Assembly: GCF_029232205.1 (NCBI RefSeq)
Contig: NZ_CP107255.1
Coordinates: 120,001 to 152,000, forward strand
Source of the DNA: Candidatus Saccharimonadota bacterium
Lineage (GTDB): Archaea > Nanohalarchaeota > Nanosalinia > Nanosalinales > Nanosalinaceae
Direction: 5' to 3'
Length of the DNA: 32,000 bases
Below the pieces are notes generated by a model that searched no databases, was not told the origin of the DNA, and was given only the letters and a program-made list of their open reading frames with translations. This document shows, in pieces, positions 1-32,000 of the stretch (the stretch's first letter is position 1; the number at the start of each line of letters is the position of its first letter). The translations under genes were made by a program, and so were the position numbers.

Positions 1-79
1 ACAGTACACGGGAAGAATTGATTTTAGAGAAGTTCCTGAGAAGGTCAGAAGTTACAGAGGGTAGAAACTTTTTTCCCTC

Positions 80-505
80 TTATCTTCTTTCTCTGTACTC
101 GGTGATTAGGCCTTTAATCTTCTGGTCGTTTTTTATCTCCAGAGTGTTGCGGAAGTAGGAGTAGATTCTTCCTATACTATCTGTGTCAAGTGATTCCAAG
201 GCCTTTTCCACGGGCTTCTCATTTTCTGTTTCTTTTTCATCTTTGTAGGATTCTGGTTCCAGAATGTGTTTTACAGGGCCTTCTTGATAGGTCTCTACGT
301 AGAGTGCTTCCCATGTTGCAGGATTATTTTCGGTCTTAAGTATTGTGTCTGTGTCGGCGTGTTTCAGTACGCGGCCAACGAAATCAGGTTCCAGTTCTTC
401 GCTGAATTCTGCTATGTCGCTGCTGGTGAAGGAGCTTGTTTCCTCGTTGATGTATTCCTCTATTACTGGCATTACTTCTTCCTGGTATCGGAGTTCCCAG
501 CTCAT
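80..505 (-). CDS. hypothetical acidic protein (141 aa), 4 nt downstream of the thyX-like gene
   Basis: Intact ORF on the same strand as the upstream gene. Composition is acidic like its neighbours. No motif recognised. Confidence 0.5.
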   Translation of the reverse strand: MSWELRYQEEVMPVIEEYINEETSSFTSSDIAEFSEELEPDFVGRVLKHADTDTILKTENNPATWEALYVETYQEGPVKHILEPESYKDEKETENEKPVEKALESLDTDSIGRIYSYFRNTLEIKNDQKIKGLITEYRERR

Positions 506-509
506 GCGA

Positions 510-2210
510 TCACGTGTGCAGATCTGTTTCTCCTGGCTGAATCCTCATCAATTCTTTCACCGGGGCGTTTCTGTATACGTCCTTGATGCCTTTTCCTTCA
601 GGGTATTCTTCCAGGCCTAGCAGCCATGGATATTCTCTGGCTGCTTCTTCTGCCAGGTTGAATGCGTCTTCACGGTATGAGAAGTTTCCTTCAGGCGTTG
701 ATCGCAAGTTTACAAAGTATTGAAGCTGATCAAGGCCTATGCTCATAGTAATTGTTGTCATTGTAGCCATTGGCAGGACGTACTGCGCCTGCAGTTTGAA
801 GTCCTCTCTAATCTGTTTTTCCGCTTCGTGCGCTATCTGCATTGTCTCTTCAAAGAGTTCTCCTGCTTTCTCAGGCATTTCATCGACTACTTCTGGCCTG
901 TAGTATCCCATGTCGAGGCTGTAGATGTTTTCTCCTCTATCGTTTTTCTGGTGTCTTCTCAGATCTCTTAGAGCGCCTACATCTGTTTTTATCTCGATCG
1001 TCAGTTTCTCGATGTCATATTCTTCGTTGCGGCCTACCCATTCATCGTAGGTGTTCCGGCCCTCGACTGTTCTCTCCAGCACATCGATTTTCTCGTTGTA
1101 GCTCATCTCCTCTGACTTCTGGAAGGCCTGTTTGAAGCTGCAGGAGTTGTTTTCCTTGAGGGTGTGGGCCACTAGCTTGTTGAGAAGGTTTTCTGGCGCG
1201 GATATTATTTCAACTCCTTTTTCGATTTCCTCTCCTTCTGAATCCATTTCAAATTCGCCGTTGTACAGATTTAGTTTATCGGAGCGGTATTCGCTTTTCT
1301 CCGTGTATTTCAGTAGTGAAGGCGCTATCTGGCCTCCTGAGTCTTCCAGTTTCTCTGCTGCGTCGTTCATTTCGCTGAGAGGGCTGCTTTTCCATGATGC
1401 GATGTCAAATTCTGTGCTTCTGGCGTCAAGCGCCCAGGCAATGTTTGTCTGAATGGCCTGCGGAAGAAGAAATCTTGCGATGTCAAGGGCCTTTCCGTCG
1501 AGTTCTCTCTTGTATTTTCTCTCTAGGAAACCTTCTGATTTCTCCTGTGTTTCTTCTGATTGTTTTTCCAGCCATTCTTCGTAAGGTAGTTGTTCTCTGT
1601 AGTATTCTTTGGCTATTTCTGTGAACTCCTTGTAGTTTTCGGTCATTTTCTCGATGGTTTCTGTGTATTTTTCGGAGTGCTCGCTTTCCATGATGTCTGG
1701 ATCTTTGTAGTAGTTGTCTTTGTCGAATTCTACGTAGCGGGTGCTTTGTTCGATGAAAAATGCTAGCTGGTCTTCTGCAAGTTTTCTCGCGAATATCTGG
1801 CTGACGTCATTTGCTACGAACGGAATCCAGACAGTGTTTGCAATTGATTTGTGGCCGTATGTTCCGTAGTATTTTTCAAAGAAGCTCTGGGATTTTTCAA
1901 GGCCTGATTGAAGGCCTTTCTGCGGGTGTTCGTAGATATCTCCTTCTTTTTCGTCTGCTGTTCTTGCCAGTTTCTCCAGTCTTTCTTCGCCGCCTTCTAT
2001 TTTGTGGCCTCGGATATTTCCTTTTATTGCGTCTAGGAGGTGTTCTCTGATGTCTTTGGGGCTTCTTGAGAAAAAGCTGCCGAATGCGCCGAATATTTCC
2101 GGGCTGACGTTTTGCACGGCATAGATGTTTTCTTCTGTATGGGTTACAAAGTTTGAAAGTGCCTTTTTTTCTGTTTCAGAGAATTCTGTCAACTGTTTAA
2201 ACCCCTCCAA
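510..2210 (-). CDS. thyX: FAD-dependent thymidylate synthase ThyX-like, long tandem-domain form (566 aa)
   Basis: N-terminal 'PEIFGAFGSFFSRS' and 'GHKSIANTVW...FFIEQSTRYVEF', plus C-half 'ALRDLRRHQ' and 'NLRSTPEGNFSYREDAF', resemble the ~530 aa Chlamydia-type duplicated ThyX (from memory). The gene is adjacent to glyA and close to tmk. TTG is the only in-frame start after the upstream stop. Confidence 0.6.
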   Translation of the reverse strand: MEGFKQLTEFSETEKKALSNFVTHTEENIYAVQNVSPEIFGAFGSFFSRSPKDIREHLLDAIKGNIRGHKIEGGEERLEKLARTADEKEGDIYEHPQKGLQSGLEKSQSFFEKYYGTYGHKSIANTVWIPFVANDVSQIFARKLAEDQLAFFIEQSTRYVEFDKDNYYKDPDIMESEHSEKYTETIEKMTENYKEFTEIAKEYYREQLPYEEWLEKQSEETQEKSEGFLERKYKRELDGKALDIARFLLPQAIQTNIAWALDARSTEFDIASWKSSPLSEMNDAAEKLEDSGGQIAPSLLKYTEKSEYRSDKLNLYNGEFEMDSEGEEIEKGVEIISAPENLLNKLVAHTLKENNSCSFKQAFQKSEEMSYNEKIDVLERTVEGRNTYDEWVGRNEEYDIEKLTIEIKTDVGALRDLRRHQKNDRGENIYSLDMGYYRPEVVDEMPEKAGELFEETMQIAHEAEKQIREDFKLQAQYVLPMATMTTITMSIGLDQLQYFVNLRSTPEGNFSYREDAFNLAEEAAREYPWLLGLEEYPEGKGIKDVYRNAPVKELMRIQPGETDLHT

Positions 2211-2305
2211 AAAAGGGTTCGATCTGAGTTATTTTATATTTTGAGAACCATATTTGAGAAGTAAAAAATAGATAAATTGAGGCCTGAGCATGGCGAACTG
2301 TGTCG

Positions 2306-3568: not shown

Positions 3569-3658
3569 GTAACTGGTTCTTTCATGAAGTCATAATTGTC
3601 TTTCGATCAGTCCGTATCTCTGGCAGAAAAAGAAGAGAAGTGAGGGTTGGGAGGGCCT

Positions 3659-4303
3659 TTATCGGTCGGCCAGCATTTCTATTACTATCTGAAGGATCTG
3701 TACGAATACTCCCATGAATGCGACGTAGATTCCTATTCCGTTGAGGTATACGTTGGAAGGCCTCTGTTTCATGTCCCAGATCTCGTAGACTAGGTATGTC
3801 AGGAATCCTGCGAGGGCGAGTGCGAATGCTACTATGATCAGGCCTCTGCTGAATGTTCCTATGAAAGATATTCCAAGTACTCCCATGAAGAGGTAGTTTG
3901 AGTATCTCTGCCATGAGGAGAAGTCGTGTTCTGTTAGATATACTAGCAGGCCGCTTATTACTGTGATTGCTGTGGTTATAATTGCTGTTGCTGCTAGTGC
4001 GATCATCTGTGTTCTTGGCCCGATCATGCCGAGTATTCCTGCTCCGAAGATCCCGTATGTTATTTGCAGGATTGCTGTGCCGAGCCAGGCCTGCTTTGTT
4101 TGGTTGTTGCGTATTCCTTTTTTGGCCAGGTATACTCCTCCGGTTAGTAGTGCTCCGTAGAATATTACTCCGAGTATGAATGTGCTGAATACGATGTTTG
4201 AGATTGTTGATAACGGTGTGAATGCGAAGACCCACATTACTGCGATGTTTATCAGTATTAGGCCTGCGCTGAGTCCTATGCTTTTCAGTTCTTCTGTTTT
4301 CAT
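3659..4303 (-). CDS. Bax inhibitor-1/YccA (TMBIM) family membrane protein
   Basis: 214 aa with about 7 predicted TM helices. Length and hydrophobic pattern are typical of the BI-1/YccA family, with a charged C-terminal tail. Family call is by pattern only. Confidence 0.5.
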   Translation of the reverse strand: MKTEELKSIGLSAGLILINIAVMWVFAFTPLSTISNIVFSTFILGVIFYGALLTGGVYLAKKGIRNNQTKQAWLGTAILQITYGIFGAGILGMIGPRTQMIALAATAIITTAITVISGLLVYLTEHDFSSWQRYSNYLFMGVLGISFIGTFSRGLIIVAFALALAGFLTYLVYEIWDMKQRPSNVYLNGIGIYVAFMGVFVQILQIVIEMLADR

Positions 4304-8796: not shown

Positions 8797-9129
8797 ATGA
8801 ATTCCCAGAGGAGCTTGGAGAAAAGCGGCAGTCAGGAAAGACGAAAAACCATTCAGGAAATATTCGATCAGGCCTTGGATAACTCAGCTGCAGAACTTAA
8901 ATCCCGGAGGCTTGCTGCCGAGGTAGATGAAAGTCTTGAAGAGAAGGCCTCTCAGAAGGAGATTTTTCAGGCCTGTCTTGAGGCCTCAAGATCTTATATA
9001 GGCGCTGATCCGGGTATGAGAGAGGTTGCGGCGGATATTTTCCTTCAGAAGGTGGATCTCGATGAAGAAGAAAGGTTCTTCGAAATGTATGTTGAGGAGT
9101 GTTCGCACGCAGGCCCTAGAAGCCGGTAG
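8797..9129 (+). CDS. hypothetical protein (110 aa)
   Basis: Intact ORF with a TATA-like 'TTTAGCTATAC' about 25 nt upstream of the ATG. No motif recognised. Confidence 0.45.
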   Translation: MNSQRSLEKSGSQERRKTIQEIFDQALDNSAAELKSRRLAAEVDESLEEKASQKEIFQACLEASRSYIGADPGMREVAADIFLQKVDLDEEERFFEMYVEECSHAGPRSR

Positions 9130-9149
9130 CTGCCGTTTTTCCCTTTTTT

Positions 9150-9668
9150 TTATTCCTCTATTTCCATGTCCTGGTCGAGGCCTTCTTTGAATTCGTCTAC
9201 TGATTCGATGTCGAAGTAGTCGAGGAAGAAGTCTGATACGTCTAGTATTGCTGTGCGGCCGTCTTTTTCTTTTTCTACAAAGTCTCTGTTAACCAGTTCT
9301 TTTACGTGCTGATAGGCCCGGTTTCCTCTGATTTCTACAAGATCTGCTTGTTCAAGGGGTGCGTTGTAGGCTATGAGGCTGAGTGTTCTTAGCTGGCCTT
9401 CGTTGAGGTCCTGGTGTGGGGCCAGGTGGGATACGTGTTCCAGGTGGTCTTTTTTGACCTTGAGTTCGTATCCTGCGTCGGTTTCAATTAGTTCGAATCC
9501 GCGATGGTCGTTTTCCAGTTCTTCTCTGAATTCCTGGATCAGCATGTCTACGTATCCCATGCTTCCGAGGTTTAGTACGTCGGCTATTTCTTTGCTGTCG
9601 ATTGGCTCCTCTGAGAGGTATAGTGCGGCCTCCAGTCGTGCCTTTTTTTCTTCCACTGTCTTTTTCAC
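9150..9668 (-). CDS. scpB: segregation and condensation protein B
   Basis: 172 aa with 'LEAALYLSEEPIDSKEIADVL' and 'LRTLSLIAYNAPLEQADLVEIRG', the ScpB winged-helix pattern. It lies directly downstream of scpA and smc. Confidence 0.8.
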   Translation of the reverse strand: MKKTVEEKKARLEAALYLSEEPIDSKEIADVLNLGSMGYVDMLIQEFREELENDHRGFELIETDAGYELKVKKDHLEHVSHLAPHQDLNEGQLRTLSLIAYNAPLEQADLVEIRGNRAYQHVKELVNRDFVEKEKDGRTAILDVSDFFLDYFDIESVDEFKEGLDQDMEIEE

Positions 9669-9671
9669 CTT

Positions 9672-10415
9672 CTAGTTTGTAACATAGTTTTCGTCCTCTC
9701 TAGGTTTTTCTGCTTCCGGCCTGACTTTAAGGTCGTCGAAGAATTCCTCCTGTATAACGTCTACTTTTCTGTCATTTTCAAGGTGGAGGATATGCTTGAA
9801 CTTCTCTATTTTTTCTTCAGTATCGTTTGATTCAACAATTTTCTCGAACTCGACCTCTTCCTTGGTTTCCTCCGAGATCATTCCTTTTATCGTGTTGAAA
9901 AGCGAGTCAATTTTGTCTGTCAGGTCTTCCTCATCCATCTCGAAGACATCTTCCATTTCCGCCCTTTCGTTCTGCCTTTCCTGCCTTCTCTCCTTGATTT
10001 CAAGTGCTGAACGCAGAGAGTCCTTCAGTTCATCGAGCTGAACCCTTCTCTTCGGTTTAGCCTTTACTGGCATGTCAAGTTCAGGTCCCATTTCGAGGTC
10101 GGGGTTACGGCCCTGGTCTTCTTCTATCATTTCTTCGTCTTCAAAGGCCATTGGGTCTTCCATCATGTCTTCTTCCTGTTCTTCTCCGTCGTCAAAGTAG
10201 ACTGCGGTTGCTTTCATCTTTAGAAGTGCTGCACATACTCTGATAGCGCGTGCAGGAACCTGTAGATCATATTCCTGCAGCTGGTCGATGTATTCCTTGT
10301 ACCTGTCGGTAAGAACGCATATATCTACCTCTTCAGCAGGCATGTCTGCCGTCAAGGCCTCAAGTGTTTCTTCCCAGGGCTGTTCTGCAAGTATCTGAAT
10401 ATCGTACTGATCCAT
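9672..10415 (-). CDS. scpA: segregation and condensation protein A (kleisin)
   Basis: 247 aa. The N-terminal 'DICVLTDRYKEYIDQL...VPARAIRVCAALLKMKA' is ScpA-like, followed by an acidic linker. Position is between smc and scpB. Confidence 0.75.
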   Translation of the reverse strand: MDQYDIQILAEQPWEETLEALTADMPAEEVDICVLTDRYKEYIDQLQEYDLQVPARAIRVCAALLKMKATAVYFDDGEEQEEDMMEDPMAFEDEEMIEEDQGRNPDLEMGPELDMPVKAKPKRRVQLDELKDSLRSALEIKERRQERQNERAEMEDVFEMDEEDLTDKIDSLFNTIKGMISEETKEEVEFEKIVESNDTEEKIEKFKHILHLENDRKVDVIQEEFFDDLKVRPEAEKPREDENYVTN

Positions 10416-10487
10416 TGTTCCAACTCTTGCTGGCCCCTCTCCCCATCGAAAAATGAGGTATAGAACTTTTTAACTGATTGCCCTTTT

Positions 10488-13109: not shown

Positions 13110-13961
13110 CTATCTGAACACGTGGAAATCTATTACCTGTGTCTGGTTCACTTCGGCTTCTGCAAGAGTAACTGTGTTATTTTCTCTGTTTGTCCACTTG
13201 AAAATCAGATGCCGCCTCTCTGTTCCGTTGTTGAATGTGATGTTGGTTACATTAAAACTGTCTCCAGACTTGATCTGCCAGCGAAACAAACCGGTTTCAT
13301 TATCTGAAAGCAGTAAGGAGCTGTTTTGAACAGATTCATTCTTTGCAAGGCCAATTTCAGTACTCCTTGCTGTTCGCAGTTCTAATTTTCTGGTATTGAA
13401 AGTGCTGAACCTTCCCTCAGTAATGTTTACTTCTAAGTTATTCCGCTCCCGATCATAGTCTGTAACTGCAATCCTCAGATCCGGTCGATCCCTGCAGAGA
13501 TGTTCTTCAAGCTTCTGCTTCCTCTCGGAGCTAGAGTTATCCAGCCTACTGCACATCGCCTGTTCCGAGTCACTTGAGCATGTGGTGTAGTACCAGGGGC
13601 TTGGTTTTGGGCCACAGCCGCCGTAGACGTAGGCCTTGCATTGACCTGTCACAGGGTTTTCTGCTGAGTGTGCGCTCCAGGCTAGACAGCTCTGTGAGGT
13701 GTAGAGAAATGTGAATGCGGTCAGGCCTGAGATCAGAAGAACTAGTATCATGGCTCCGGCCTTGATCCATCCTGTTTCGATGAATCTGTAGGCTGAAGCA
13801 ATAAGTACGGTTATCAGAGATAGGCCTGCGAATCTTGATGCAAAAATGGTTATGCCTATACTGTTGAAGGATACCAGAAAAGAGAGTGCGATTCCTGTCC
13901 CCAGGATGGCTAGAAATGTTCTGTCCTCGCGGGCTTCTTCAAAATGCTCTCTAACTTTCAC
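13110..13961 (-). CDS. membrane-anchored Cys-rich, N-glycosylation-sequon-rich surface protein (283 aa)
   Basis: Three N-terminal TM helices are followed by a 6-Cys segment ('GQCKAYVYGGCG...'). A C-terminal region carries about 10 N-x-S/T sequons (NSS, NIT, NES, NSS, NET, NVT, NIT, NGT, NNT, NQT). Confidence 0.6.
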   Translation of the reverse strand: MKVREHFEEAREDRTFLAILGTGIALSFLVSFNSIGITIFASRFAGLSLITVLIASAYRFIETGWIKAGAMILVLLISGLTAFTFLYTSQSCLAWSAHSAENPVTGQCKAYVYGGCGPKPSPWYYTTCSSDSEQAMCSRLDNSSSERKQKLEEHLCRDRPDLRIAVTDYDRERNNLEVNITEGRFSTFNTRKLELRTARSTEIGLAKNESVQNSSLLLSDNETGLFRWQIKSGDSFNVTNITFNNGTERRHLIFKWTNRENNTVTLAEAEVNQTQVIDFHVFR

Positions 13962-16765: not shown

Positions 16766-16824
16766 AAGTTGTAGAACTGGTTGTAGAAGAAAATTTGCTG
16801 TAGAAACTTTTTGAATATATTTTT

Positions 16825-20181: not shown

Positions 20182-20229
20182 CTTAAAAAAGAGATTGGAG
20201 CAGGGTATCGAATTTATGATAAGGCTGAA

Positions 20230-20254
20230 GAAAAAAGGAGGCCTGAAGGCCTCT
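20230..20254 (-). terminator. hairpin plus T6 tract at the glyS 3' end
   Basis: On the minus strand, GAGGCC-TTCA-GGCCTC (20238-20253) is built from two AGGCCT copies and overlaps the TAG stop. It is followed directly by CC-TTTTTT. Confidence 0.45.
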
Positions 20255-21962
20255 AGAGGTATTCTGCTAGTTTGCTGATCTCTACACGTTCCTGTTCTGT
20301 GGAGTCTCTGTCTCTGACTGTTACTGTTTCTGGGTCTTCCTCAAGTGTCTCATAGTCGACTGTTACACAGACAGGTGTACCTACTTCATCCTGTCTTCTG
20401 TAACGCTTACCGATGTTTCCGGTATCGTCATACTTGACTGAGAATCCCTGATCTCTCAGCATGTCAGCTACGTCTCTGGCCTTCTCTCCCAGGCCTTCCT
20501 TATCCATAAGAGGGAAGACTGCAACTTCTGTCGGGGCAACAGACTCGGAAAGATGCAGCACAGTCCTCTTCTCATCGTCTACTTCGTCCTCATCGAATGC
20601 GTGGGCCAGAACGGTGTAGACAATTCTGTCAATACCGAATGAAGGCTCCACTACCTGAGGAAGGATGTGCTCTCCGTTCTCGGTAACTTTCTCAACAGAG
20701 AAGTTGCACTTGTCCGAAGGAACAGCATATTCCTCGCCGTCAACCTCTACAAGAACCTTGTCGGCCTCAAAGGCCTCAGGCTCTTCTTCAGCAAGGGCTT
20801 CCAGTTTCTCCTTAATTTTTCCGGCTTTATCGCCGAACTCTGGGCCTAAATAGCCCATGTCTGGACTGACAGTGTTTTTCTCTACTGTCTTCGGCTCGTC
20901 GTACTCTTTGAAGATGGTGTAGTCGTCACGACTGTACTGGTTGTGCTTTTTCAGGTCGTAGCAGCCTCTGTAAGCGAAACCGGTGATCTCAATCCAGTCA
21001 CCATCAACATGAGATTCAGCATCCCAGCAATCAGAGGCGTAGTGGGACAGCTCATCGTTCTGATGCTGTCTGAAACGGAAACGCTCCATATCGATGCCGA
21101 TAGACTCGTACCACTGCTTTGCGATACCGAGATAGTATGCAATCCAGTCGGACTCAACTACCTCATCGTCAACAGCTTCTTTGACTGTCATCTTGACAGC
21201 TTTGCCGTCTTCCTTGTCCTGCTCCTTGCGAGAGTAAAGCTTCAGCTCTACATCCTCGACATCCTCTATCGGAGGCCTATCTTCGTCAGGATCAATAAAG
21301 TGCTCAAGCTCTGCCTGAGTCAACTCTCTAACCCTTACAAGGCCTTTTCTCGGCGAAATCTCGTTCCTGTAGGCCTTACCTATCTGGGTAATACCGAATG
21401 GAAGCTGATTCCGTGCGTACTCCTTCAGTCTTGGAAACTCGACGAAGATACCTTGAGCTGTCTCTGGCCTGAGGTAGCCTGGCTGGCCGCTTCCAGGACC
21501 GATAGAGGTTTCAAACATCAAGTTGAAGTCTTCAACCTTTACTCCTGTCAGCTCCTCGCCGCAGCTCGGGCAGACAAGGTTATGTTCCTTGATCAGCTCT
21601 TCAATTTTCTTATTGGAGAAGGCCTCTGCCTCGTCGATTTCAGTATTGTCTTCTACCAGATGATCTGCTCTACTGGAGGTTCCACATTCTGGACACTCGA
21701 TTATCATGTCGTCGAAAGTATCCAGGTGGCCTGATGCCTCGAAAACTGCCTCGGGCATGATTGTCGGGGCCTCGATCTCTCTGTGGCCCAGGCTCTGTGA
21801 GAAAGTTTCTCTCCAGCTGTTCTCAACGTTTCTTTTGATTTCTGCTCCTTCTGGGCCGAAGGTTTGGAAACCTGCAGCACCGCCGTATGCCTCTGAACTC
21901 TGGAAGAAGAAACCTCTCCTCTTCGATAGCTCAGAAAGCTTTTCCGTAAGGGACTTGCTCAT
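20253..21962 (-). CDS. glyS: glycyl-tRNA synthetase (archaeal/eukaryal alpha2 type)
   Basis: 569 aa with 'RGFFFQSSEAYGGAAGFQTFGPEG', 'YLRPETAQGIFV', 'FGITQIGKAYRNEISPR' and 'VEPSFGIDRIVY'. Confidence 0.95.
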   Translation of the reverse strand: MSKSLTEKLSELSKRRGFFFQSSEAYGGAAGFQTFGPEGAEIKRNVENSWRETFSQSLGHREIEAPTIMPEAVFEASGHLDTFDDMIIECPECGTSSRADHLVEDNTEIDEAEAFSNKKIEELIKEHNLVCPSCGEELTGVKVEDFNLMFETSIGPGSGQPGYLRPETAQGIFVEFPRLKEYARNQLPFGITQIGKAYRNEISPRKGLVRVRELTQAELEHFIDPDEDRPPIEDVEDVELKLYSRKEQDKEDGKAVKMTVKEAVDDEVVESDWIAYYLGIAKQWYESIGIDMERFRFRQHQNDELSHYASDCWDAESHVDGDWIEITGFAYRGCYDLKKHNQYSRDDYTIFKEYDEPKTVEKNTVSPDMGYLGPEFGDKAGKIKEKLEALAEEEPEAFEADKVLVEVDGEEYAVPSDKCNFSVEKVTENGEHILPQVVEPSFGIDRIVYTVLAHAFDEDEVDDEKRTVLHLSESVAPTEVAVFPLMDKEGLGEKARDVADMLRDQGFSVKYDDTGNIGKRYRRQDEVGTPVCVTVDYETLEEDPETVTVRDRDSTEQERVEISKLAEYL

Positions 21963-26200: not shown

Positions 26201-26214
26201 GAGGACGATCAAAA

Positions 26215-27330
26215 ATGCCAGATATTGACCCATGGGGCGACGTAGAAGTCGGAAACTACTCCGAAAAAATGGATAAATTCGGAATTGAACCAATCGAAGA
26301 AGTAGCGGACAGAATGCCAGACCACAGATTCATCCGCAGAGGAATAATATTCGGCCACAGAGGCCTTGACGAATTCCTGGATGCTAGAGAGGAAGGAGAT
26401 GAATTCGCAATGATGACCGGAATCATGCCGTCAGGAGTATTCCACTTCGGCCACAAATGCGTCGTCGACCAGATCAAAATGTACCAGGAAATGGGCGCAC
26501 AGGTCACAATAGCAGCAGCAGACATAGAAGCATACAACACAAGAGAAATGAGTCTGGAAGAGGCCCGAAAACTCGTCGTAGAGGAATACCTGAAAAATTA
26601 TGTGGCTCTCGGAATCGATCTGGAAGATGTAGACTTCTACTTCCAGTCCAAGGCCGGAAATAATCACCTGGCAAGAGCTGCAACATTCGGCCGCTACCTC
26701 ACACAGAACGAAATGGAGGCCACGTACGGTTCTGCAAACCCTGGAAAAATGTCCGCAGCACAGGTACAGTACGCAGACATCCTCAGGCCACAGTTCCCGG
26801 AAAACGGAGGCCCAAAGCCAACAGTTGTGCCTGTAGGAGTCGATCAAGATCCTCACATAAGATTAACCAGGGATGTGGCAAGAAAGTACCGTGATCAGGA
26901 CTTCCAGAAACCTGCTTCAACCTACAATAAATTCATGAGAGGCCTGCAGGGAGGAAAAATGTCCTCCTCCAAACCAAAAAGCTACATCGCACTGACAGAT
27001 GATATTGAAGATGCCAAGAGTAAGATCGACCAGGCCAAGACAGGAGGACAGGACTCACTGGAAGAACACAGAGAAAAAGGCGCCGACGTCGAAGAAGACA
27101 TGGTCTTCGAACTACTGGCCTTCCACCTCATCAAAGACGACGAAGAACTCGCAAGAATCAGAGATGAGTACGAATCAGGAGAAATGCTGTCCGGAGAACT
27201 CAAACAGATCGCAAAAGACAAACTAGAGGACTTCCTGAAAGAACACCAGAGAAAAAGAGAGGAGGCAGCTCCACAGGTTGAACAGTACATAGAGGAGAAC
27301 TTCGAGTTCGATATCAACCCGGAGGCCTGA
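26215..27330 (+). CDS. trpS: tryptophanyl-tRNA synthetase (archaeal type)
   Basis: 371 aa. The N-terminal 'DPWG...YSEKMDKFGIEPI...RRGIIFGHRGLDEFL' is archaeal TrpRS-like. The HIGH motif appears as 'PSGVFHFGH' and KMSKS as 'KMSSSKP'. Confidence 0.85.
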   Translation: MPDIDPWGDVEVGNYSEKMDKFGIEPIEEVADRMPDHRFIRRGIIFGHRGLDEFLDAREEGDEFAMMTGIMPSGVFHFGHKCVVDQIKMYQEMGAQVTIAAADIEAYNTREMSLEEARKLVVEEYLKNYVALGIDLEDVDFYFQSKAGNNHLARAATFGRYLTQNEMEATYGSANPGKMSAAQVQYADILRPQFPENGGPKPTVVPVGVDQDPHIRLTRDVARKYRDQDFQKPASTYNKFMRGLQGGKMSSSKPKSYIALTDDIEDAKSKIDQAKTGGQDSLEEHREKGADVEEDMVFELLAFHLIKDDEELARIRDEYESGEMLSGELKQIAKDKLEDFLKEHQRKREEAAPQVEQYIEENFEFDINPEA

Positions 27331-27363
27331 ACAGTTAAAGGCCTCTAAAACTACATTTCTCTT

Positions 27364-28116
27364 ATGTTGCCGGAGCTTATTCTGAGAGAGGAAAAACAGG
27401 GAAGCCTCAAATACGTAACGCTCCTAGGCCTTCTCTCAGGGCTCACAGGCTACGGAATAGCAAAATTCATTTTTCCCGGCCAGACCGACGTTCTCTCAGT
27501 AGTATTCGCCTCAATTCCGCTCGTATTTCCGTTGACGAAAGTTTTCCTGGAAGACGAGGAAAATGGGAGGCCGCATACTGACGAGGTAGAATTCTACGGA
27601 ACACTATTCCTCGGCCAGTTCATAGCTTTTCTAACACTGGGGCTTCTCAGGCCTGAAGATTTCTCAATGCAGACTGCAGTATTCAGCGAACAGATGACAC
27701 AGCTAGGCCTTACAGGAAACGCAATACTGCCTGACGTCTTCTTCGTCGTAATCTCCAACAATCTAGTACTTTACCTGTCAATTTTCGCAGTAGCAGCAGT
27801 CATAGGTTCTGCAGGAGCATTCATACTCACATGGAATGCCTCGGCCCTTGGAATATTCATGGCACACCTGATCGCAGAGCTCAGAGGATTCTCAGAAATA
27901 CTGCTGGGCGCAGGAAAAACACCCTCTCCAGTAGCATACGTACCACATGCCACACTGGAAATGGCAGGATTCGCAGTAGCAGGAATCTGCGGAAGCCTTG
28001 TATCAGCCGCAGTATACAGAGAACACTTCGACACAGACACCTGGAAAGACCTCACCAAACTGTTTGTCGGCGGCCTACTTCTCATACTGGTCGCAGCACT
28101 TCTCGAATCAGCCTGA
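27364..28116 (+). CDS. SpoIIM/DUF95-family integral membrane protein
   Basis: 250 aa with about 6 TM helices. 'ISNNLVLYLSIFAVAAVIGSAGAFILTWNASALGIF' matches the characteristic NN...G...NG-like core of the SpoIIM family. Confidence 0.5.
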   Translation: MLPELILREEKQGSLKYVTLLGLLSGLTGYGIAKFIFPGQTDVLSVVFASIPLVFPLTKVFLEDEENGRPHTDEVEFYGTLFLGQFIAFLTLGLLRPEDFSMQTAVFSEQMTQLGLTGNAILPDVFFVVISNNLVLYLSIFAVAAVIGSAGAFILTWNASALGIFMAHLIAELRGFSEILLGAGKTPSPVAYVPHATLEMAGFAVAGICGSLVSAAVYREHFDTDTWKDLTKLFVGGLLLILVAALLESA

Positions 28117-28154: not shown

Positions 28155-29558
28155 GTGAAACTCTCAAGCCAGGCCATAGACATACTTGAACAGTTGAAAA
28201 AACACGGACGAAGAACTGTAGAGGAACTGGAAAATGAAGGATTCGACCAGTCAATGGTAAACCGTGCTGCAATAGAACTACAGGACAAAGGCCTAGCAGA
28301 AGTAGAGGAAGAAGAAACAGTAACACGCTACCTAACGGAGACAGGAAAAAAAGTAGCAGCAGAAGGCTCACCAGAACACAAACTAATTGAAAGAGTAGAA
28401 GAAGGAGACAAATCGCTCTCCAAACTCCAGGACCTCAACCTCGACGTTGCACTGGGAAAGGCCCGACAGAAAAACTGGATAGAAATACAAGGAGGCTCAG
28501 TAGCCCTCACAGATAAAGGGAAAAACGCACTGGAAGAAGACGACCTCAAGAAAAGACTAAATGAGGAGGACTTCATGCAGGTCCACGAAGACAGAGGCCT
28601 TGTAGAAGCAGAAATAGAAGTAACAAGAATACTGGTCCTAACAGAAAAAGGAGAAGACCTGGAACTTGAAAAAGTCGAAGAAGACTTCAACGTAGAGGCC
28701 CAGGTACAGACACCAAGGATAGGTAAAAAACACTTCTACAAGGAAATCCTCGACTTCGCACAGGAAAAATTCGTGGAAATGGGATTCCAGGAAATGACAG
28801 GAGACTTCATAGTGCCCAGCTTCCTAAACTTCGACGCACTGTACACCGCACAGGACCACCCAGCCAGAGACCTCCACGACACATTCTTCATGAAAACACC
28901 TGAGAAATCCGACCTTTCAGAGTACGGAGACAAAGTGCAGCACGTTAAAGAAACACACGAAGACGGCTGGACAACAGGATCCAAGGGCTGGGGCTATGAC
29001 TGGAGCGAACAAGAGGCCTCAAGAAACGTACTCAGAACACATACAACCGCAGTCAGCGCAAGAAGACTGCACGAAATCGATATTAACGAAGAGGAACTGC
29101 CTAAAAAGCTGTTCTGCATAGGCAGAAACTTCAGGAACGAAACAGTAGACAGAACACACCTCCCAGGATTCATACAGCTAGACGGAATCGTGGTAGGCAA
29201 AAACCTGAACTACAGAAACCTCAAAGGATACCTCAGCGAATTCTTCGAAAAAATGGGGTACGAAGAGTTCCGACTAATCCCATCATACTACCCATACACA
29301 GAAATGAGCACAGAAGTACAGGTATACGACGAGGAAGAAGACGAATGGCTCGGAATGGGAGGCGCAGGCCTCTTCAGACCAGAAGTAGTCAAACCAATGC
29401 TAGGATTCGAAGCAACAGTACTAGCATGGGGACTAGGCCTAGGAAGAGTAGCAATGAAAGCAGCAGAAATTGAAGACATCAGAGAACTTTACAGAAATGA
29501 CATAGAAATACTTGAGGAAACTCCAAAATGGAGGCCTCACAACGGAGGAGAACAATAA
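28155..29558 (+). CDS. pheS: phenylalanyl-tRNA synthetase alpha subunit
   Basis: 467 aa, GTG start. N-terminal winged-helix repeats are followed by class II motifs 'HPARDLHDTFF', 'LRTHTTAVSAR', 'GRNFRNETVDRTHLPGFIQLDG' and 'GAGLFRPEV'. Confidence 0.95.
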   Translation: MKLSSQAIDILEQLKKHGRRTVEELENEGFDQSMVNRAAIELQDKGLAEVEEEETVTRYLTETGKKVAAEGSPEHKLIERVEEGDKSLSKLQDLNLDVALGKARQKNWIEIQGGSVALTDKGKNALEEDDLKKRLNEEDFMQVHEDRGLVEAEIEVTRILVLTEKGEDLELEKVEEDFNVEAQVQTPRIGKKHFYKEILDFAQEKFVEMGFQEMTGDFIVPSFLNFDALYTAQDHPARDLHDTFFMKTPEKSDLSEYGDKVQHVKETHEDGWTTGSKGWGYDWSEQEASRNVLRTHTTAVSARRLHEIDINEEELPKKLFCIGRNFRNETVDRTHLPGFIQLDGIVVGKNLNYRNLKGYLSEFFEKMGYEEFRLIPSYYPYTEMSTEVQVYDEEEDEWLGMGGAGLFRPEVVKPMLGFEATVLAWGLGLGRVAMKAAEIEDIRELYRNDIEILEETPKWRPHNGGEQ

Positions 29559-31205
29559 ATGGCCAACTTGGAGATAGACAAAAGAGAATTCGACCAACTT
29601 GTAGGAGAAAGCATCGACAACCAGAAAATGATAGAAGAAGGCTCAATGCTGGGCGCACACTGGCACCGTATCGAAGGAAACGTATGCGAAGTAGAAACAT
29701 ACCCAAACAGGCCAGACCTACTATCTGTAGAAGGCCTTGCCAGAGCATACAGAGGATTCTTCGACATTGATACAGGAAGAGAAAAATATGACATACAGAA
29801 AGGAGATCTCAAGGTAGAAGTCGATGAATCAGTAGAAGATGTCCGGCCTCACATCGGGGGTGCAGTAGTCAGAGGTCTCGAACTCTCAAAAAAGAAGATT
29901 AACGGCCTGATCCAGCTACAGGAAAAAATGCACGAAACAATGGGCCGCAGAAGAGACAAACTGGCGATAGGCCTGCATGACCTCTCCACAGTAGAAGCGC
30001 CGTTCACATACAAAGCTGTAGAACCGGAAAAAGTCTCATTCAAACCGCTGGAATACGATAAACACATGCAGCTTGGAGAAATTCTGGATGAACACGAAAA
30101 AGGCCAGAAATACGCATGGATTCTGGAAGACGAGGACAGATACCCGATAATTGAGGATTCTGAAGGAAAAGTGCTCAGCTTCCCGCCAATAATCAACAAC
30201 CAGCTGACAGAAGTAGACTCCGAAACAACCGATATCTTCATCGACGTCACAGGAAAACACAGAGAAACAGTGATGAAGGCCCTCAACATCCTCACAACTG
30301 CACTTTCTGAAAGAGGAGGCCAGATAGAATCAGTAACAGTCGACGGAGAAAAAATGCCGGATTTAACGCCTGAAGAAATGGAGCTTGATATCGAATACTT
30401 CAGAGACATCTCAGGCCTTGATCTAGAACCAGAAGAAATTGTCAAAAGACTGGAAATGATGAAGCACGAGGCCAAAAAGAAGGGAGACAAGATCAAAGTC
30501 AAGATTCCGGCCTACAGGAACGATATAATCCACCAGTACGACCTGATCGAGGAAGTTGTGATCGCACACCGGTACGACAATATAGAACCAGAAGTCCCAG
30601 AAGTAGATCAAATGGCCTCAGTAAAACCTATTCAGGACTTCGCAGATAGAATAAGAGATGTAATGACAGGTGCCGGCGCTCTTGAAGCAAATACTTTCTA
30701 CCTCTCCAGCAAGGAAAAAATCTTTGAAATGATGGAGATAGAGGAAAATGAAGTAGCAGAAGTAGCCAACGCATCAGGAGAGGAACAGGAGGTAGTCAGA
30801 AACTGGCTTCTGCCATCACTGTTCCAGACACTGCACGATAACAGGCATCACAGCTATCCACAGACATTCTTCGAAGTATCCGATGTAGTAGAGCTCGACA
30901 ACTCCAGAGTAGGAGCATCCAACAAAAAGAAGATGGCCTACATAGTAACAGGCAATGAAAAAGATTACACGGACGCAAGAGCAATCCTCCAGGTACTGGA
31001 AAGAGATCTAGGCCTTGAATTCGATGTACAGGAAAAATACCGGAGCTGCTTCAAAGAATCAAGATCAGCAGCAGTCTACTTCAAAGACAAGAGGGTAGGA
31101 ATAATCGGAGAGTTCTCAGAAGAAGTTATTGAAAACTGGGAGCTCAGCTATCCTGCAGCAGGCCTTGAACTGGACGTGGAAAAGATCCTTGAACTGAAAG
31201 AGTAA
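29559..31205 (+). CDS. pheT: phenylalanyl-tRNA synthetase beta subunit (archaeal type)
   Basis: 548 aa. The start abuts the pheS stop. It has the B3/B4-domain pattern and 'YRNDIIHQYDLIEEVVIAHRYDNI', typical of archaeal PheT. Confidence 0.9.
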   Translation: MANLEIDKREFDQLVGESIDNQKMIEEGSMLGAHWHRIEGNVCEVETYPNRPDLLSVEGLARAYRGFFDIDTGREKYDIQKGDLKVEVDESVEDVRPHIGGAVVRGLELSKKKINGLIQLQEKMHETMGRRRDKLAIGLHDLSTVEAPFTYKAVEPEKVSFKPLEYDKHMQLGEILDEHEKGQKYAWILEDEDRYPIIEDSEGKVLSFPPIINNQLTEVDSETTDIFIDVTGKHRETVMKALNILTTALSERGGQIESVTVDGEKMPDLTPEEMELDIEYFRDISGLDLEPEEIVKRLEMMKHEAKKKGDKIKVKIPAYRNDIIHQYDLIEEVVIAHRYDNIEPEVPEVDQMASVKPIQDFADRIRDVMTGAGALEANTFYLSSKEKIFEMMEIEENEVAEVANASGEEQEVVRNWLLPSLFQTLHDNRHHSYPQTFFEVSDVVELDNSRVGASNKKKMAYIVTGNEKDYTDARAILQVLERDLGLEFDVQEKYRSCFKESRSAAVYFKDKRVGIIGEFSEEVIENWELSYPAAGLELDVEKILELKE

Positions 31206-31332
31206 AGAAAAAAGAATTTTTGAAGGGTGGATGATGAACCCTGCGGGACCAAACTCTGCCGAGTTTGATCAGCTGAAGGCACAAAAAGTGCCTTTCGGAA
31301 GGGTTTGATTTTTGAGTGCTGACGCCCTGAAA

Positions 31333-31614
31333 TTATTCCTCATCGTTTTCTGAATTGGAATTGTCGTCAGGTTCCTCATGCGGACTCTCATCCTCTTCCT
31401 CTACTGCCACACTGTTTCTATCCTGTACTTCGCTCTCTGTAGGAATAATCAGCCAGGCCACAAGGTAAAGCAGAGGGCTCACTCCGGTAATAATCAGTAG
31501 CAACGTAATTAGGCGTACTACTGAAGGGTCAAAGCCGTAGACCTCAGCAATTCCTCCGCAAATACCGCCAAGGATTCTGTCAGTCTCCGACCGGTAAAGT
31601 CTGTTTTCTGCCAT
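31333..31614 (-). CDS. PspC domain-containing small membrane protein
   Basis: 93 aa. 'LYRSETDRILGGICGGIAEVYGFDPSVVRLITLLLIITG' is the PspC domain plus a TM helix, followed by an acidic tail. Confidence 0.75.
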   Translation of the reverse strand: MAENRLYRSETDRILGGICGGIAEVYGFDPSVVRLITLLLIITGVSPLLYLVAWLIIPTESEVQDRNSVAVEEEDESPHEEPDDNSNSENDEE

Positions 31615-31647
31615 TTTATTTCACACTACAAAGATTATATTCAAGGG

Positions 31648-32000
31648 TTAAATCTGTTCTTCTTCCTCATCAGTTGAGACACGACCTCCCTGCCACTGCC
31701 CCTCGTAATCGCGTACAAGGCCGCCAATAGCTTGTTTAAATACTATCTCGGCAACGCGAGCGCCTTCCTGAATCTCAAAGGTCTGATTGGAAACATTCTT
31801 CAAACCAAAAATCAGAGGCCCCTCATAACCTGGATTCGTATTCGTCCCTTTGAAGTACAGACCGCTTCTCTGCAGAGTACTTCTTGGATAGACATCAGGC
31901 ATCAAATGGGCCTCGGTCCCTCCAACCTCTACAGCATCGCTCGGAACCTCAACAGTCTCACGAGTCTTAATCAAGTAGTAATCGCCAGGCTCAAGAACAA
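31648..32000 (-). CDS. dcd: dCTP deaminase/dUTPase family protein, 5'-truncated by the window edge
   Basis: The frame stays open to nt 32000 ('..LEPGDYYLIKTRETVEVP'), so the TTG at 31974 in the track is probably internal. 'NPGYEGPLIFGLKNVSNQTFEIQEGARVAEIVF' and the C-terminal 'YEGQWQGG' are Dcd/Dut-like. Confidence 0.8.
   Translation of the reverse strand, partial: VLEPGDYYLIKTRETVEVPSDAVEVGGTEAHLMPDVYPRSTLQRSGLYFKGTNTNPGYEGPLIFGLKNVSNQTFEIQEGARVAEIVFKQAIGGLVRDYEGQWQGGRVSTDEEEEQI

Follow-up and report, generated by a model that had tools for sequence, protein, structure and literature searches.

Why would a genome accumulate a restriction-type palindrome? The window, a stretch of 32,000 nt from the 1.05 Mb genome of the cultured DPANN archaeon Candidatus Nanohalovita haloferacivicina BNXNv, raises this question for the hexamer AGGCCT. 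Ca. Nanohalovita, a tiny salt-loving archaeal symbiont, offers a small cultivable system for asking it: AGGCCT fills most of the places open to it in this organism, whereas close relatives show no preference for it or have eliminated GGCC, its core.

We counted 93 copies of AGGCCT and 271 of GGCC in the 32,000 nt, and 34% of all GGCC carry A...T flanks (Table 1). These values agree with the preliminary description of the window, where about 93 and about 270 copies and a share of about one third had been estimated by hand. The G+C content given there as about 42% is revised to 45.6%. The expected number of AGGCCT, earlier put at 5–8, is 6.4 under an order-0 and 8.5 under an order-1 model, and that of GGCC is 70–87 instead of about 60. 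Compared to the order-1 expectation, the AGGCCT count has a Poisson probability of ~5e-62. The copies are evenly spread, with 9–16 per 4-kb bin and Poisson-like gaps. Nor is the enrichment confined to the window, as the same density is found in non-syntenic flanks of related genomes. The hyper-abundance of AGGCCT is confirmed. With a maximal-order Markov model, 88 copies are expected compared to the 93 observed, and the closeness of the two shows that AGGCC, GGCCT and GGCC carry much of the signal; this result describes the anatomy of the signal and refutes nothing.

Table 1. Copies of AGGCCT in the window and their surroundings (positions are those of the window).
Feature	Position	Strand	Remarks
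AGGCCT, dispersed copies	1–32000	none	n=93, 2.9 per kb; 85 in genes, 8 outside; GGCC background n=271
Non-coding copy between thyX and glyA	2280–2285	none	
Densest local cluster, three copies in 42 nt	8945–8986	none	Inside small ORF 8797–9129
Two non-coding copies (15996–16001 and 16125–16130)	15996–16130		Spacer from hypothetical ORF 15392–15970 (which adjoins AspRS) to coiled-coil ORF 16193–16609
Copy pair AGGCCTgaAGGCCT directly downstream of glyS	20239–20252	−	6-bp transcript hairpin, then U-run
Copy pair over stop codon of class-I (Trp/Tyr-type) tRNA synthetase gene	27323–27344	+	8-bp hairpin, 10-nt loop
Copy in pheS (Arg-Gly-Leu)	28595–28600	+	Common to six enriched genomes at orthologous position (alignment position 566)
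Phase 1 example xAG GCC Txx, pheS	29014–29019	+	28 window copies in phase 1
Phase 0 example AGG CCT (Arg-Pro), pheS	29532–29537	+	7 window copies in phase 0
Phase 2 example xxA GGC CTx (X-Gly-Leu), pheT	29732–29737	+	50 window copies in phase 2

As a null model for the coding sequence, we shuffled synonymous codons 1000 times while preserving each protein sequence and the codon usage of each gene. The genes contain 85 copies of AGGCCT compared to 18.7±3.8 in the shuffles (maximum 31 in 1000; z≈16–17). Among all 4096 hexamers, AGGCCT ranks first under this null (z≈16), and all runners-up overlap AGGCC or GGCCT. A shuffle preserving codons and dipeptides had been named beforehand as a possible refutation of the claim that neither codon nor amino-acid choice explains the motif; with about 18 copies against 85, the claim survives. 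Furthermore, the motif occurs in all three codon phases (7, 28 and 50 copies) and in non-coding DNA (8 copies), as previously described, and the coordinates and phases quoted for single copies (pheT 29732; pheS 29014 and 29532; spacers 2280, 16125, 20239, 20247 and 27339) were all verified. Each phase count is about 4–5 times its own shuffle mean, the odds ratios are similar across the three phases (about 9–14), and the 8 non-coding copies compare to 0.4 expected from non-coding composition.

The motif also occupies a large part of the positions that the proteins permit. AGG CCT encodes 7 of the 22 Arg-Pro dipeptides in the window, where codon usage predicts 1.1. It is present in 27 of 51 permissive tripeptides of the type (K/E/Q)-Ala-(T-starting codon) and in 49 of 70 permissive X-Gly-Leu tripeptides, compared to 3.9 and 10 expected. 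In the phase 1 context, the Ala codon is GCC in 90% of cases (background 17–24%). The Gly codon is GGC in 77% of cases ahead of a C-starting codon and in 21% otherwise, whereas this context effect is flat (16–29%) in non-enriched relatives of similar codon usage. Between 32 and 70% of the protein-permissive positions are occupied here, compared to 0–13% in non-enriched relatives, and the deciding synonymous base fits the motif in 83–88% of cases in enriched genomes (background 18–20%). An amino-acid change was required for 12 of the 25 sites examined. Positions that can be converted to an A/T-flanked GGCC without a protein change, or with a conservative one, have mostly been converted. Since the excess survives the shuffle and is similar in the three phases, in non-coding DNA and for both half-sites, we conclude that the pressure acts on DNA and not on translation.

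The preliminary description treated the hexamer as the enriched unit. Its enrichment stands, but the hexamer is not indivisible: a core of GGCC with a flank on either side, each independent of the other, describes the enriched unit better. The core is obligatory, and the A and T flanks each give an independent boost of ~3.6-fold; this independence holds throughout the enriched genomes (observed/expected 1.0–1.17). One-mismatch variants are enriched 2.3–3.6 times at the outer positions and near 1 in the core; for HIP1, Elhai (PMC4390886) likewise reported one-base deviations mainly at the outer positions. AGGCC half-sites are balanced between the strands (58 vs 65), and with one free Ala third position both orientations are boosted about equally (0.74 vs 0.88). 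We found no longer consensus around AGGCCT: nothing is conserved outside the hexamer, and the flanks are diverse and without indels. A C...G extension is present on 36 of 687 sites (5%), while the commonest extension is A...T (16%). The obligatory core, the independent and equal flanks and the absence of a strand, phase or position preference would fit a symmetric protein that reads double-stranded AGG/CCT.

When comparing related genomes, we find a patchy distribution across lineages: 17 related sequences are enriched 9–46-fold, ten are neutral and three are purged of GGCC. The enriched genomes include BNXNv, VS9-1, M3_22 and SG9, the neutral ones Nanohalococcus, Nanohalobium and SW_7_43_1, and the purged ones JALDAJ01 and MAG_AT22. 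The density of AGGCCT among relatives reaches 4.7–6.7 per kb, and enriched lineages are likewise scattered over the trees of PheST and AspRS. In the purged lineages, GGCC is nearly eliminated (L009 and L142 pooled, 6 vs 79; L156, 8 vs 75), which is a classic restriction footprint. The replacement base in these lineages is mostly T (18/28), suggesting that C-to-T change at GGCC is frequent in the phylum.

The comparison of orthologues that had been proposed shows that motif sites were gained at synonymous positions. Gly-Leu is written A GGC CT in 6/6 enriched taxa and A GGA/T/G CT in non-enriched ones; for instance, non-enriched genomes have AGGACT, AGGTCT or AGGGCT at the position orthologous to the pheS copy at 28595, with the peptide unchanged. 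BNXNv and M3_22 are both enriched 12–15-fold despite sharing only 40% identity at four-fold degenerate sites, and no enrichment of core decay products of the motif was seen. This suggests that the process is active and not a relic. Sites are shared between genomes mostly as independent saturation predicts (15 vs 13.7; 15 vs 12.1), and motif copies are conserved at 2–3.7 times the frequency of phase-matched control hexamers. In addition, a pheS–pheT tract of 2.6 kb is 93–96% identical to the VS9-1 lineage, compared to 55–75% in the neighbouring DNA, from which we conclude that enriched lineages exchange DNA. Taken together, there is a genuine DNA-level fixation bias toward a StuI-type palindrome across the whole sampled BNXNv genome, and in certain lineages only. 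AGGCCT belongs with the highly iterated palindromes of the HIP1 type: the central reading of the preliminary description, a HIP1-like palindrome that a small archaeal genome carries on both strands, in every codon phase and in its spacers, passed all tests that were run. We found no prior report of such a palindrome in archaea in the literature.

As the driver of this bias, we tentatively infer a symmetric AGGCCT-reading DNA-modification enzyme that is coupled to biased repair or recombination (probability about 0.35). A symmetric, probably dimeric, protein would read the double-stranded site and act at each copy, and each act would slightly favour the retention or creation of AGGCCT. The protein may be a StuI/HaeIII-like methyltransferase or another DNA methyltransferase activity of the strain, whose mark would bias mismatch correction or recombinational repair toward the marked, motif-bearing strand. 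The motif would then accumulate as molecular drive, and individual copies need not be useful. Such a biased-repair 'ratchet' is to our knowledge without an experimental demonstration so far, HIP1 included, and the repair repertoires of DPANN genomes are reduced; both points count against the modification-enzyme reading. Its simplest version, VSP-type T:G correction, is unsupported, as T does occur among the non-motif bases that remain at the inner C (35 T, 16 A, 11 G) and transversions and flank changes are driven as well. The ratchet corresponds to the proposal for cyanobacterial HIPs outlined by Elhai (PMC4390886), whereas Xu et al. argued for selection and not for a ratchet in the case of HIP1 (PMC5861425). 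The GGCC purge in sister lineages and the patchy enriched state suggest that the phylum harbours circulating enzymes with this specificity, and mobile restriction-modification and methyltransferase genes are likewise patchy (PMC10609329).

A search for an AGGCCT or GGCC methyltransferase had also been proposed. With phmmer (using the verified M.HaeIII) and a motif regex, we found no DNA methyltransferase in the ~0.54 Mb of nanohaloarchaeal sequence searched, that is, the window and 30 loci from two genomic neighbourhoods. For BNXNv itself, the only restriction-modification system in the published annotation is a type III Mod/Res pair, with four generic SAM-dependent methyltransferases listed besides (PMC10266531), which counts against the modification-enzyme reading. 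The same holds for Ca. Nanohalococcus occultus, which is not enriched (1.1-fold in genome CP180231.1) even though its type strain, SVXNc, has a gene for a DNA cytosine methyltransferase; the sampled genome may be of another strain.

Other explanations have to be weighed against this reading. The probability of an artefact of codon usage, dipeptide or base composition, or of dispersed copies of a mobile repeat, is negligible. The Markov result, with much of the signal in sub-words, speaks for it; it is refuted by the shuffles, the enriched non-coding DNA, the context dependence of the Gly codon and the diverse flanks that lack an extended consensus and indels. Very improbable, too, is a signal at the RNA level, by which the self-complementary AGGCCU, which each copy yields from either transcribed strand, would pair and thereby structure or stabilise mRNAs in the high-salt cytoplasm. 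The window is nearly all transcribed (in the revised gene model, 29,129 of its 32,000 nt, or 91%, are coding), and close pairs can fold well, such as the pair at the tRNA synthetase stop codon (−14.0 kcal/mol, z=−3.0) and the pair after glyS (−10.9 kcal/mol, z=−2.6), whose predicted hairpin and U-run look like a terminator. The folding of the densest cluster is unexceptional (z=−1.1). Copies had been described as often closely paired into hairpins, but such pairs occur at chance frequency (7 gaps of ≤30 nt vs 7.7 at random). AGGCC and GGCCT, although different words in RNA, are boosted about equally in matched codon context and without strand skew, and the purge of GGCC is typical of DNA restriction. 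It is hardly probable that VSP-type repair alone, in which a cytosine-5 methyltransferase and a T:G endonuclease or glycosylase restore AGGTCT or AGGCTT to AGGCCT, left this footprint. Candidates are Vsr or, in archaea, Mig.MthI, the partner of the GGCC methylase M.MthTI; the motif contains the target of this known archaeal pair, and purged lineages replace mostly with T. Yet T neighbours are the commonest residual variants (35/62 at the inner C, 11/23 at the outer C), the six classes of core neighbour are all mildly and similarly reduced, GGA to GGC transversions and A/T flanks are fixed beyond the reach of T:G repair, and known VSP footprints are far weaker. As the sole cause it is largely refuted, since T neighbours are not depleted and transversions and flanks are driven.

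Two further explanations assign a function to the motif; the preliminary description had listed a methylation site, a signal in repair, recombination or uptake and a nucleoid-protein site as candidates. AGGCCT could be a genome-wide 'self' tag for a system of DNA uptake, recombination or protection, analogous to uptake sequences or Chi, that accumulates because DNA of relatives is preferentially taken up or recombined when it bears the motif, perhaps in a methylation-dependent manner; we consider this possible, if doubtful. A 6-bp palindrome distinguishes host DNA poorly, known uptake sequences are asymmetric and 9–12 bp long, and we know of no competence machinery in these organisms. Position-independent, uniform saturation suits a drive on site density, and the pheS–pheT tract documents DNA exchange among enriched lineages; however, the tract ends 45–55 nt from the nearest AGGCCT copies and not on them, and a single event is too few for a link. 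Recent work proposes such a role for HIP1: methylated HIP1 makes transformation more efficient, and the abundance of HIP1 is correlated with genes of type IV secretion (bioRxiv 10.64898/2026.06.24.733823). In the host-dependent nanohaloarchaea, a VirB4/TraG-like ATPase domain is part of giant surface proteins, whereas DNA uptake, competence and ComEC are unmentioned in the BNXNv paper (PMC10266531). Ordinary selection on each copy, with AGGCCT required by the chromosome architecture or by an abundant protein of chromatin or the nucleoid, corresponds to the reading of HIP1 by Xu et al. and is unlikely here. The symmetric recognition anatomy and the conservation above control hexamers, in the same test as used by these authors (PMC5861425), are consistent with it. 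However, once the amino-acid context is considered, sharing is near independent saturation, so that no particular positions need a function; the spacing is Poisson-like, and close relatives manage without the motif or delete its core. A saturation of 50–90% with amino-acid changes would moreover imply a per-site advantage that is hard to fit to a density-type function in a symbiont with a small population.

Among known systems, the VSP footprint (CCWGG in E. coli) and M.MthTI/Mig.MthI resemble AGGCCT in that a methylated palindrome is over-represented by biased repair, and the archaeal case targets GGCC. The VSP effect is much weaker and predicts depletion of T neighbours and fixation from T to C only, both of which fail for AGGCCT. 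USS/DUS and Chi are likewise genome-wide 'self' words that enter genes, alter proteins and can spread by molecular drive; they are 8–12 bp long, asymmetric, often strand-skewed and tied to uptake or RecBCD machinery, whereas AGGCCT is a 6-bp palindrome without skew. Restriction-site avoidance (Gelfand & Koonin 1997; Rusinov et al. 2015, PMC4687349) concerns the same sequence class and matches the loss of GGCC in L009, L142 and L156, but has the opposite sign in the window and 16 related sequences. The alternate HIPs, such as GGCGCC and GCCGGC, are lineage-specific and hexamer-scale, accumulate alongside a methyltransferase of overlapping specificity and have an inner core that is the enzyme's site, with outer positions filled later (Elhai 2015, PMC4390886); such a methyltransferase link is unsupported by the published annotation of BNXNv. 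The ratchet, as outlined in the same source, needs no function of individual copies, as in the reading preferred here, and predicts saturation near one site per kb, whereas here only coding constraints limit the density. The HIP-like palindrome CAGGCCTG of Synechococcus sp. PCC 6312 contains AGGCCT, and its observed/expected ratio of 14.7 is near the fold-enrichment of the window (Xu, Lawrence & Durand 2018); it is, however, an octamer that one cyanobacterium carries at only 0.37 copies per kb; its conservation has never been assessed, and its C...G extension is not favoured here. The closest likeness is to HIP1 (GCGATCGC) of cyanobacteria, a short G+C-rich restriction-type palindrome over-represented 15–300-fold (PMC5861425), which is dispersed, spread by substitution and not by insertion, located in spacers as well as in every codon phase of genes, more conserved between genomes than control motifs, patchy in its phylogenetic distribution and debated in its function. 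HIP1 differs in being a bacterial octamer with about 0.2–1 copies per kb, compared to 2.9 for the hexamer here, in its cognate methyltransferases DmtA and DmtC, with none identified for AGGCCT here, and in its known periodicity of 10–90 kb (the window spans 32 kb). In contrast to HIP1, AGGCCT nearly saturates the permissive coding positions, while sister lineages purge its core.

When counting exactly, we find 93 copies of AGGCCT and 271 of GGCC in the window (G+C 45.6%), in agreement with the roughly 93 and 270 obtained by hand in the preliminary description. For AGGCCT, 6.4 copies are expected from base composition, 8.5 under an order-1 Markov model, 27 at order 2, 53.5 at order 3 and 88 at maximal order; for GGCC the expectation is 70–87. 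The hexamer is thus 14.6-fold over-represented relative to base composition, which we count as reaching the threshold of ~15-fold for highly iterated palindromes (HIPs), and ~15-fold relative to low-order models. As the maximal-order expectation is 88, the sub-words AGGCC, GGCCT and GGCC carry much of the signal. None of the other palindromic hexamers in the window comes near AGGCCT in excess, and a number of classic palindromes of the restriction type are missing or very rare.

To obtain a codon-aware null, we permuted synonymous codons within each gene in 1000 shuffles, keeping the protein sequence and the codon usage. The genes contain 85 copies, compared to 18.7±3.8 in the shuffles (maximum 31), and AGGCCT ranks first of 4096 hexamers (z≈16), with runners-up that all overlap AGGCC or GGCCT. 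The preliminary description had claimed that codon or amino-acid choice does not explain the motif and had named a codon shuffle as a possible refutation; the shuffle does not refute it, and a codon or dipeptide artefact is ruled out. Equally borne out is the claim that the motif occurs in all codon phases and in spacers: coding copies are found as AGG/CCT (7), xAG/GCC/Txx (28) and xxA/GGC/CTx (50), each 4–5 times its null, and 8 copies lie outside genes where 0.4 are expected. Coding copies are split evenly by gene strand (43 and 42). We conclude that the AGGCCT finding is real and robust, and give next to no weight to an artefact.

The copies are evenly spread, with 9–16 per 4 kb, and the gaps between them are Poisson-like (CV 0.89). 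The remark that copies are often closely paired did not hold up, as the number of pairs within 30 nt is not above chance (7 vs 7.7 expected). An excess of hairpins or close pairs is thereby ruled out, though single pairs do fold; the run of U after the hairpin at the end of glyS suggests that AGGCCT may have been co-opted there as a terminator-like structure. These pairs are included in the following table.

Features of the window and their positions
Feature	Position	Strand	Observation
thyX-like gene	510-2210	-	unusually long (566 aa); two Thy1 stretches; below NCBIfam cutoff
ORF	3582-4235		probably not a gene; wrong frame of the Bax1-I family gene
Bax1-I family membrane protein gene	3659-4303
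SMC	10488-13031	-	short (847 aa); adjoins ScpA and ScpB
283-aa ORF	13110-13961	-	between SMC and AspRS
ORF	16595-16984		probably not a gene; overlaps tRNA-Leu
tRNA-Leu	16682-16766
AGGCCT pair, glyS 3' end	20215-20262	-	stable hairpin, -10.9 kcal/mol, then UUUUUU; terminator-like
AGGCCT pair, class-I tRNA synthetase gene 3' end	27315-27365	+	stable hairpin, -14.0 kcal/mol
Recombination or HGT tract, mid-pheS to pheT stop	28640-31213		corresponds to ~9090-11655 of the VS9-1 locus (L002)

The anatomy of the motif points to GGCC as its core. One-mismatch variants that keep GGCC are 2.3–3.6-fold enriched, compared to 0.4–1.3, near 1, for variants that break it. The A and T flanks act independently, with 88.0 copies carrying both flanks expected and 93 observed, and either one raises the odds ~3.6-fold in the window. 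Beyond the hexamer the base composition is flat, save for a weak A/T or R/Y preference at the adjacent position. AGGCC half-sites are not skewed between the strands (58 vs 65). Since both orientations are boosted about equally, the pattern is consistent with double-stranded DNA, not an RNA word, being recognised, and we consider a role at the RNA level very improbable. The bias is also visible in codon choice: in the window, glycine is encoded by GGC in 77% of cases before CTx and 76% before C[ACG]x, compared to 21% elsewhere. Alanine is encoded by GCC in 90% of cases between xAG and T, in 74–88% with one flank and in 31% with neither; where the preceding base is not G, the proportion is only 17–24%. 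In codon alignments, orthologous AGGCCT positions differ by point substitutions only, with no indels at the sites. A mobile repeat of the REP or MITE type, which would have a conserved unit of more than 20 bp and lie mostly between genes, was rejected, as there is no extended consensus, the flanks are diverse and 91% of the copies are genic.

Positions where the protein permits the motif are filled far beyond the prediction from codon usage: 7 of 22 Arg-Pro positions (1.1 predicted), 27 of 51 [K/E/Q]-Ala-[T...] positions (3.9 predicted) and 49 of 70 [..A]-Gly-Leu positions (10 predicted). The odds boost is ~9–14 and alike in the three phases. Many window copies are common to orthologues in codon alignments, with 15 of 25 shared with VS9-1, 15 of 29 with M3_22 and 5 of 11 with SG9; phase-matched control hexamers are conserved at 13–27% and four-fold degenerate sites have an identity of 0.37–0.49. 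At positions permissive in both genomes, however, the number of shared sites comes close to what multiplying the two saturation levels predicts (15 vs 13.7 and 15 vs 12.1). The pressure thus looks uniform over all possible sites and not tied to particular positions, and position-specific conservation is mostly accounted for by independent saturation; a modest association is left over (0.72 vs 0.38, pooled across clades).

Across the enriched genomes, the deciding base is C in 312 of 374 A/GGN/CT contexts and in 175 of 198 AG/GCN/T contexts, and it is A in 73 of 86 four-fold xxN/GGC/CT contexts. A driver consisting solely of T:G-specific (VSP) repair appears very improbable: T is the commonest base among the exceptions, which argues against such repair, the core neighbours are all similarly and mildly reduced, and transversions and flank positions are driven as well. 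The motif is also unlikely to be the relic of a lost driver, as there is no excess of core decay products and it is retained in two lineages whose synonymous divergence is saturated. Furthermore, no non-enriched orthologue has a permissive peptide at 12 of 25 motif positions in PGK, PheS and PheT, which indicates that the pressure changes proteins; the changes include LGI to LGL, KP to RP, AGF to AGL and RDL to RGL.

The window belongs to Candidatus Nanohalovita haloferacivicina BNXNv, to which six of its proteins are identical (accessions between WEL23003 and WEL23030), with a chromosome of 1,046,959 bp. We compared the window to 14 GTDB genomes around pheT, 17 metagenome contigs around AspRS and four further genomes. 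The preliminary description had allowed that the enrichment might be confined to the window; this is refuted, as the motif is just as dense in flanking DNA of relatives that lacks synteny to it. The related sequences fall into different states. Among the named genomes, BNXNv, VS9-1 (NZ_CP180230.1), M3_22 (CP046106.1) and SG9 (CP012986.1) are enriched, and Ca. Nanohalococcus occultus (CP180231.1), Ca. Nanohalobium constans (CP040089.1) and SW_7_43_1 (PXPE01000001.1) are neutral.

AGGCCT and GGCC in related nanohaloarchaeal sequences, observed vs expected
State	Sequences	AGGCCT	GGCC
Enriched (9-46-fold)	17 (255 kb)	858 vs 46.6 (18.4-fold)	1656 vs 617
Weak (3.5-fold)	2	24 vs 6.8	107 vs 92.4
Neutral	10	33 vs 29.1	328 vs 422.3
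Purged	L009 and L142	0 vs 6.5	6 vs 79.2
Purged	L156	0 vs 4.7	8 vs 74.7

Taken singly, GGCC occurs 5 times where 51 are expected in MAG_AT22 (L009, JACOQA010000003.1), once where 28 are expected in the SL_4KL_010_BRINE contig (L142) and 8 times where 75 are expected in JALDAJ010000001.1 (L156), that is, at 0.04–0.11 of expectation. In MAG_AT22, GGC is used before a C-starting codon in only 1 of 57 cases and the replacement is mainly GGTC; in the purged genomes generally, the inner C is mostly replaced by T. This loss is a classic restriction-avoidance footprint on the very core with which the window is saturated. A search for an alternate palindrome of comparable strength in the sister lineages returned none, only mild excesses of CCGG and AGCT and ordinary avoidance footprints. 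In the locus of Ca. Nanohalococcus occultus, AGGCCT is not enriched (1.1-fold) and GDGCHC occurs twice where 38 are expected, matching the published methylated restriction-modification site of this organism. CTAG is depleted in all nanohaloarchaeal loci (0.06–0.8 of expectation), ACGT is nearly absent from locus L149 (1 vs 21.7) and CGCG is depleted in L007 (4 vs 18.4).

In trees of PheS+PheT and of AspRS, the enriched genomes split into two or more groups with neutral and purged lineages in between; as these are neighbour-joining trees of one or two genes and pheT itself has undergone exchange, their branching order serves as a rough guide only. Along the tract in pheS–pheT, identity to Ca. 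Nanosalina VS9-1 rises from 55–65% to 93–96% across ~2.6 kb, and the PheT protein is 95% identical to that of VS9-1 vs 81% for M3_22, although M3_22 is the closer of the two elsewhere. Neither end of the tract falls on a motif copy, the nearest AGGCCT being 45–55 nt away. The enriched genomes also differ in their flanks: the boost per flank is 3.0–3.6 in the group of BNXNv, M3_22 and contig L136 and 6.4–10.6 in the others, and the fraction of GGCC carrying both A and T is 27–34% in that group vs 46–73% in the others, the latter counted for loci that have 30 or more GGCC. These looser flanks hint at a driver that differs in specificity or strength. In the two weakly enriched sequences (L007, L014), GGC before C-starting codons is raised (0.43–0.44 vs 0.18) and GCC after G-ending codons is not, a phase-specific pattern unlike the symmetric one of strongly enriched genomes. 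A dispersed AGGCCT excess was also observed in the IMG/VR viral contigs L017 (13 copies in 3.6 kb at 36% G+C), L102 (22 in 10.8 kb), L095, L104 and L045, which were picked by a triple-AGGCCT pattern and are thus a biased selection; no protein similarity of these contigs to nanohaloarchaea was found.

In the window, 32 genes were called (91% coding in the revised gene model), and all have housekeeping functions. They include thyX-like, glyA, dTMP kinase, RqcH, ScpA/ScpB/SMC, AspRS, RNase HII, EndA, rhomboid protease, GlyRS, PGK, a class-I tRNA synthetase and PheS/PheT. Among the 32, we found no methyltransferase, no dedicated repair gene and no gene confined to enriched genomes. The 283-aa ORF matches nothing in Pfam or NCBIfam, and tblastn gave no match for it in the metagenome loci centred on AspRS (L136–L151, among them the 92%-identical L136); its normal motif density (3 copies) suggests that it is not recently imported DNA. 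Scanning ~0.54 Mb of loci by regular expressions and phmmer revealed no m5C or N4/N6 methyltransferase, and a regular-expression match in locus L148 was rejected as a HEPN-like partner of a nucleotidyltransferase. An M.HaeIII query, verified against PDB entry 3UBT, returned only bacterial relatives (>73% identical) from 5.8 billion proteins, and this large search gives no information on the point.

Taken together, a strong, symmetric and position-independent bias at the DNA level targets GGCC, with independent contributions of the outer positions. It operates in several lineages, and in sister lineages a restriction-type pressure acts against GGCC. Judged from the sequences, the pattern is a candidate signature of a sequence-specific enzyme acting on double-stranded DNA. 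An avoidance footprint of a resident type II restriction-modification system was rejected, as it has the opposite sign to the over-representation in the window. Our tentative preference is for a drive coupled to DNA modification by a putative enzyme, to which we assign a probability of about 0.35. The closest model is the ratchet of Elhai (PMC4390886), in which a methyltransferase and methyl-directed mismatch repair together would favour HIPs. We do not go higher because Reva et al. (PMC10266531) list for BNXNv only a type III Mod/Res system, with BNXNv_0801 as the Mod, next to four generic SAM-dependent methyltransferases, and because the type strain of Ca. Nanohalococcus occultus encodes a DNA cytosine methyltransferase, though the sampled locus of this species is not AGGCCT-enriched.

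A role of AGGCCT in uptake, recombination or self-tagging, as is now proposed for HIP1, seems unlikely, though it comes next to the modification-coupled drive. Known DNA uptake sequences (USS/DUS) are asymmetric, at least 9 bp long, occur at ~1/kb and are served by dedicated uptake machinery, whereas the motif is a 6-bp palindrome with neither extension nor skew and does not belong to this class. We are more doubtful still about a specific version, in which AGGCCT, or AGGCC on either strand, would serve as a tag for an as yet unrecognised archaeal system separating symbiont from host DNA during cytoplasmic contact with the haloarchaeal host. Such a tag would resemble USS, Chi or the proposed role of HIP1 in function and might be read via the type III Mod, the only reported DNA methyltransferase of the strain, and the GGCC-purging sisters would be under a matching restriction pressure. 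Direct selection on the motif for a role in chromatin or chromosome architecture appears improbable.

The origin and function of HIPs have been debated for 30 years, almost only in cyanobacteria; the phenomenon is now seen in another domain and in 1-Mb genomes. BNXNv is already in culture with its host Haloferax and thus offers a tractable case. As contrasting complete genomes exist as well, the cause of the enrichment is now directly testable: saturated, neutral and purged states at similar phylogenetic depth make it possible to screen cleanly, by phyletic pattern, for the gene or genes responsible and to test directly for methylation, biased repair and exchange of DNA. Both codon choice and protein sequence are remodelled by the pressure, the former as with glycine GGC before C-starting codons, the latter by amino-acid changes (I, M or F to L; K to R; D or E to G). 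It can mislead studies of codon usage, dN/dS or convergence within the phylum. AGGCCT density also offers a sharp marker by which nanohaloarchaeal contigs can be binned.

By phenomenological criteria, AGGCCT is a highly iterated palindrome. It shows the enrichment, the codon-aware excess, the presence in all phases and spacers and the spread by substitution that characterize the class. Conservation in the sense of Xu et al. 2018 is found, though it is largely accounted for by independent saturation, and outer positions deviate as in Elhai 2015 (flank variants 2.3–3.6, core 0.4–1.3). The class also has a cognate DNA methyltransferase encoded in the genomes that carry the palindrome; in the ~0.54 Mb of loci scanned here none was found, and the paper on BNXNv names only the type III Mod. 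The 10–90 kb periodicity of the class is to be read against a window of only 32 kb, inside which spacing is Poisson-like. In the searchable literature, no previous account turned up of an excess of AGGCCT or GGCC in Nanohaloarchaea or any other archaea. The nearest relative of the motif is CAGGCCTG in Synechococcus PCC 6312, which occurs at 0.37 per kb (O/E 14.7). Compared to CAGGCCTG, the motif described here is a hexamer, occurs in Archaea (DPANN), reaches 3–7 copies per kb with permissive positions nearly saturated, and has a core, GGCC, that is purged in sister lineages.
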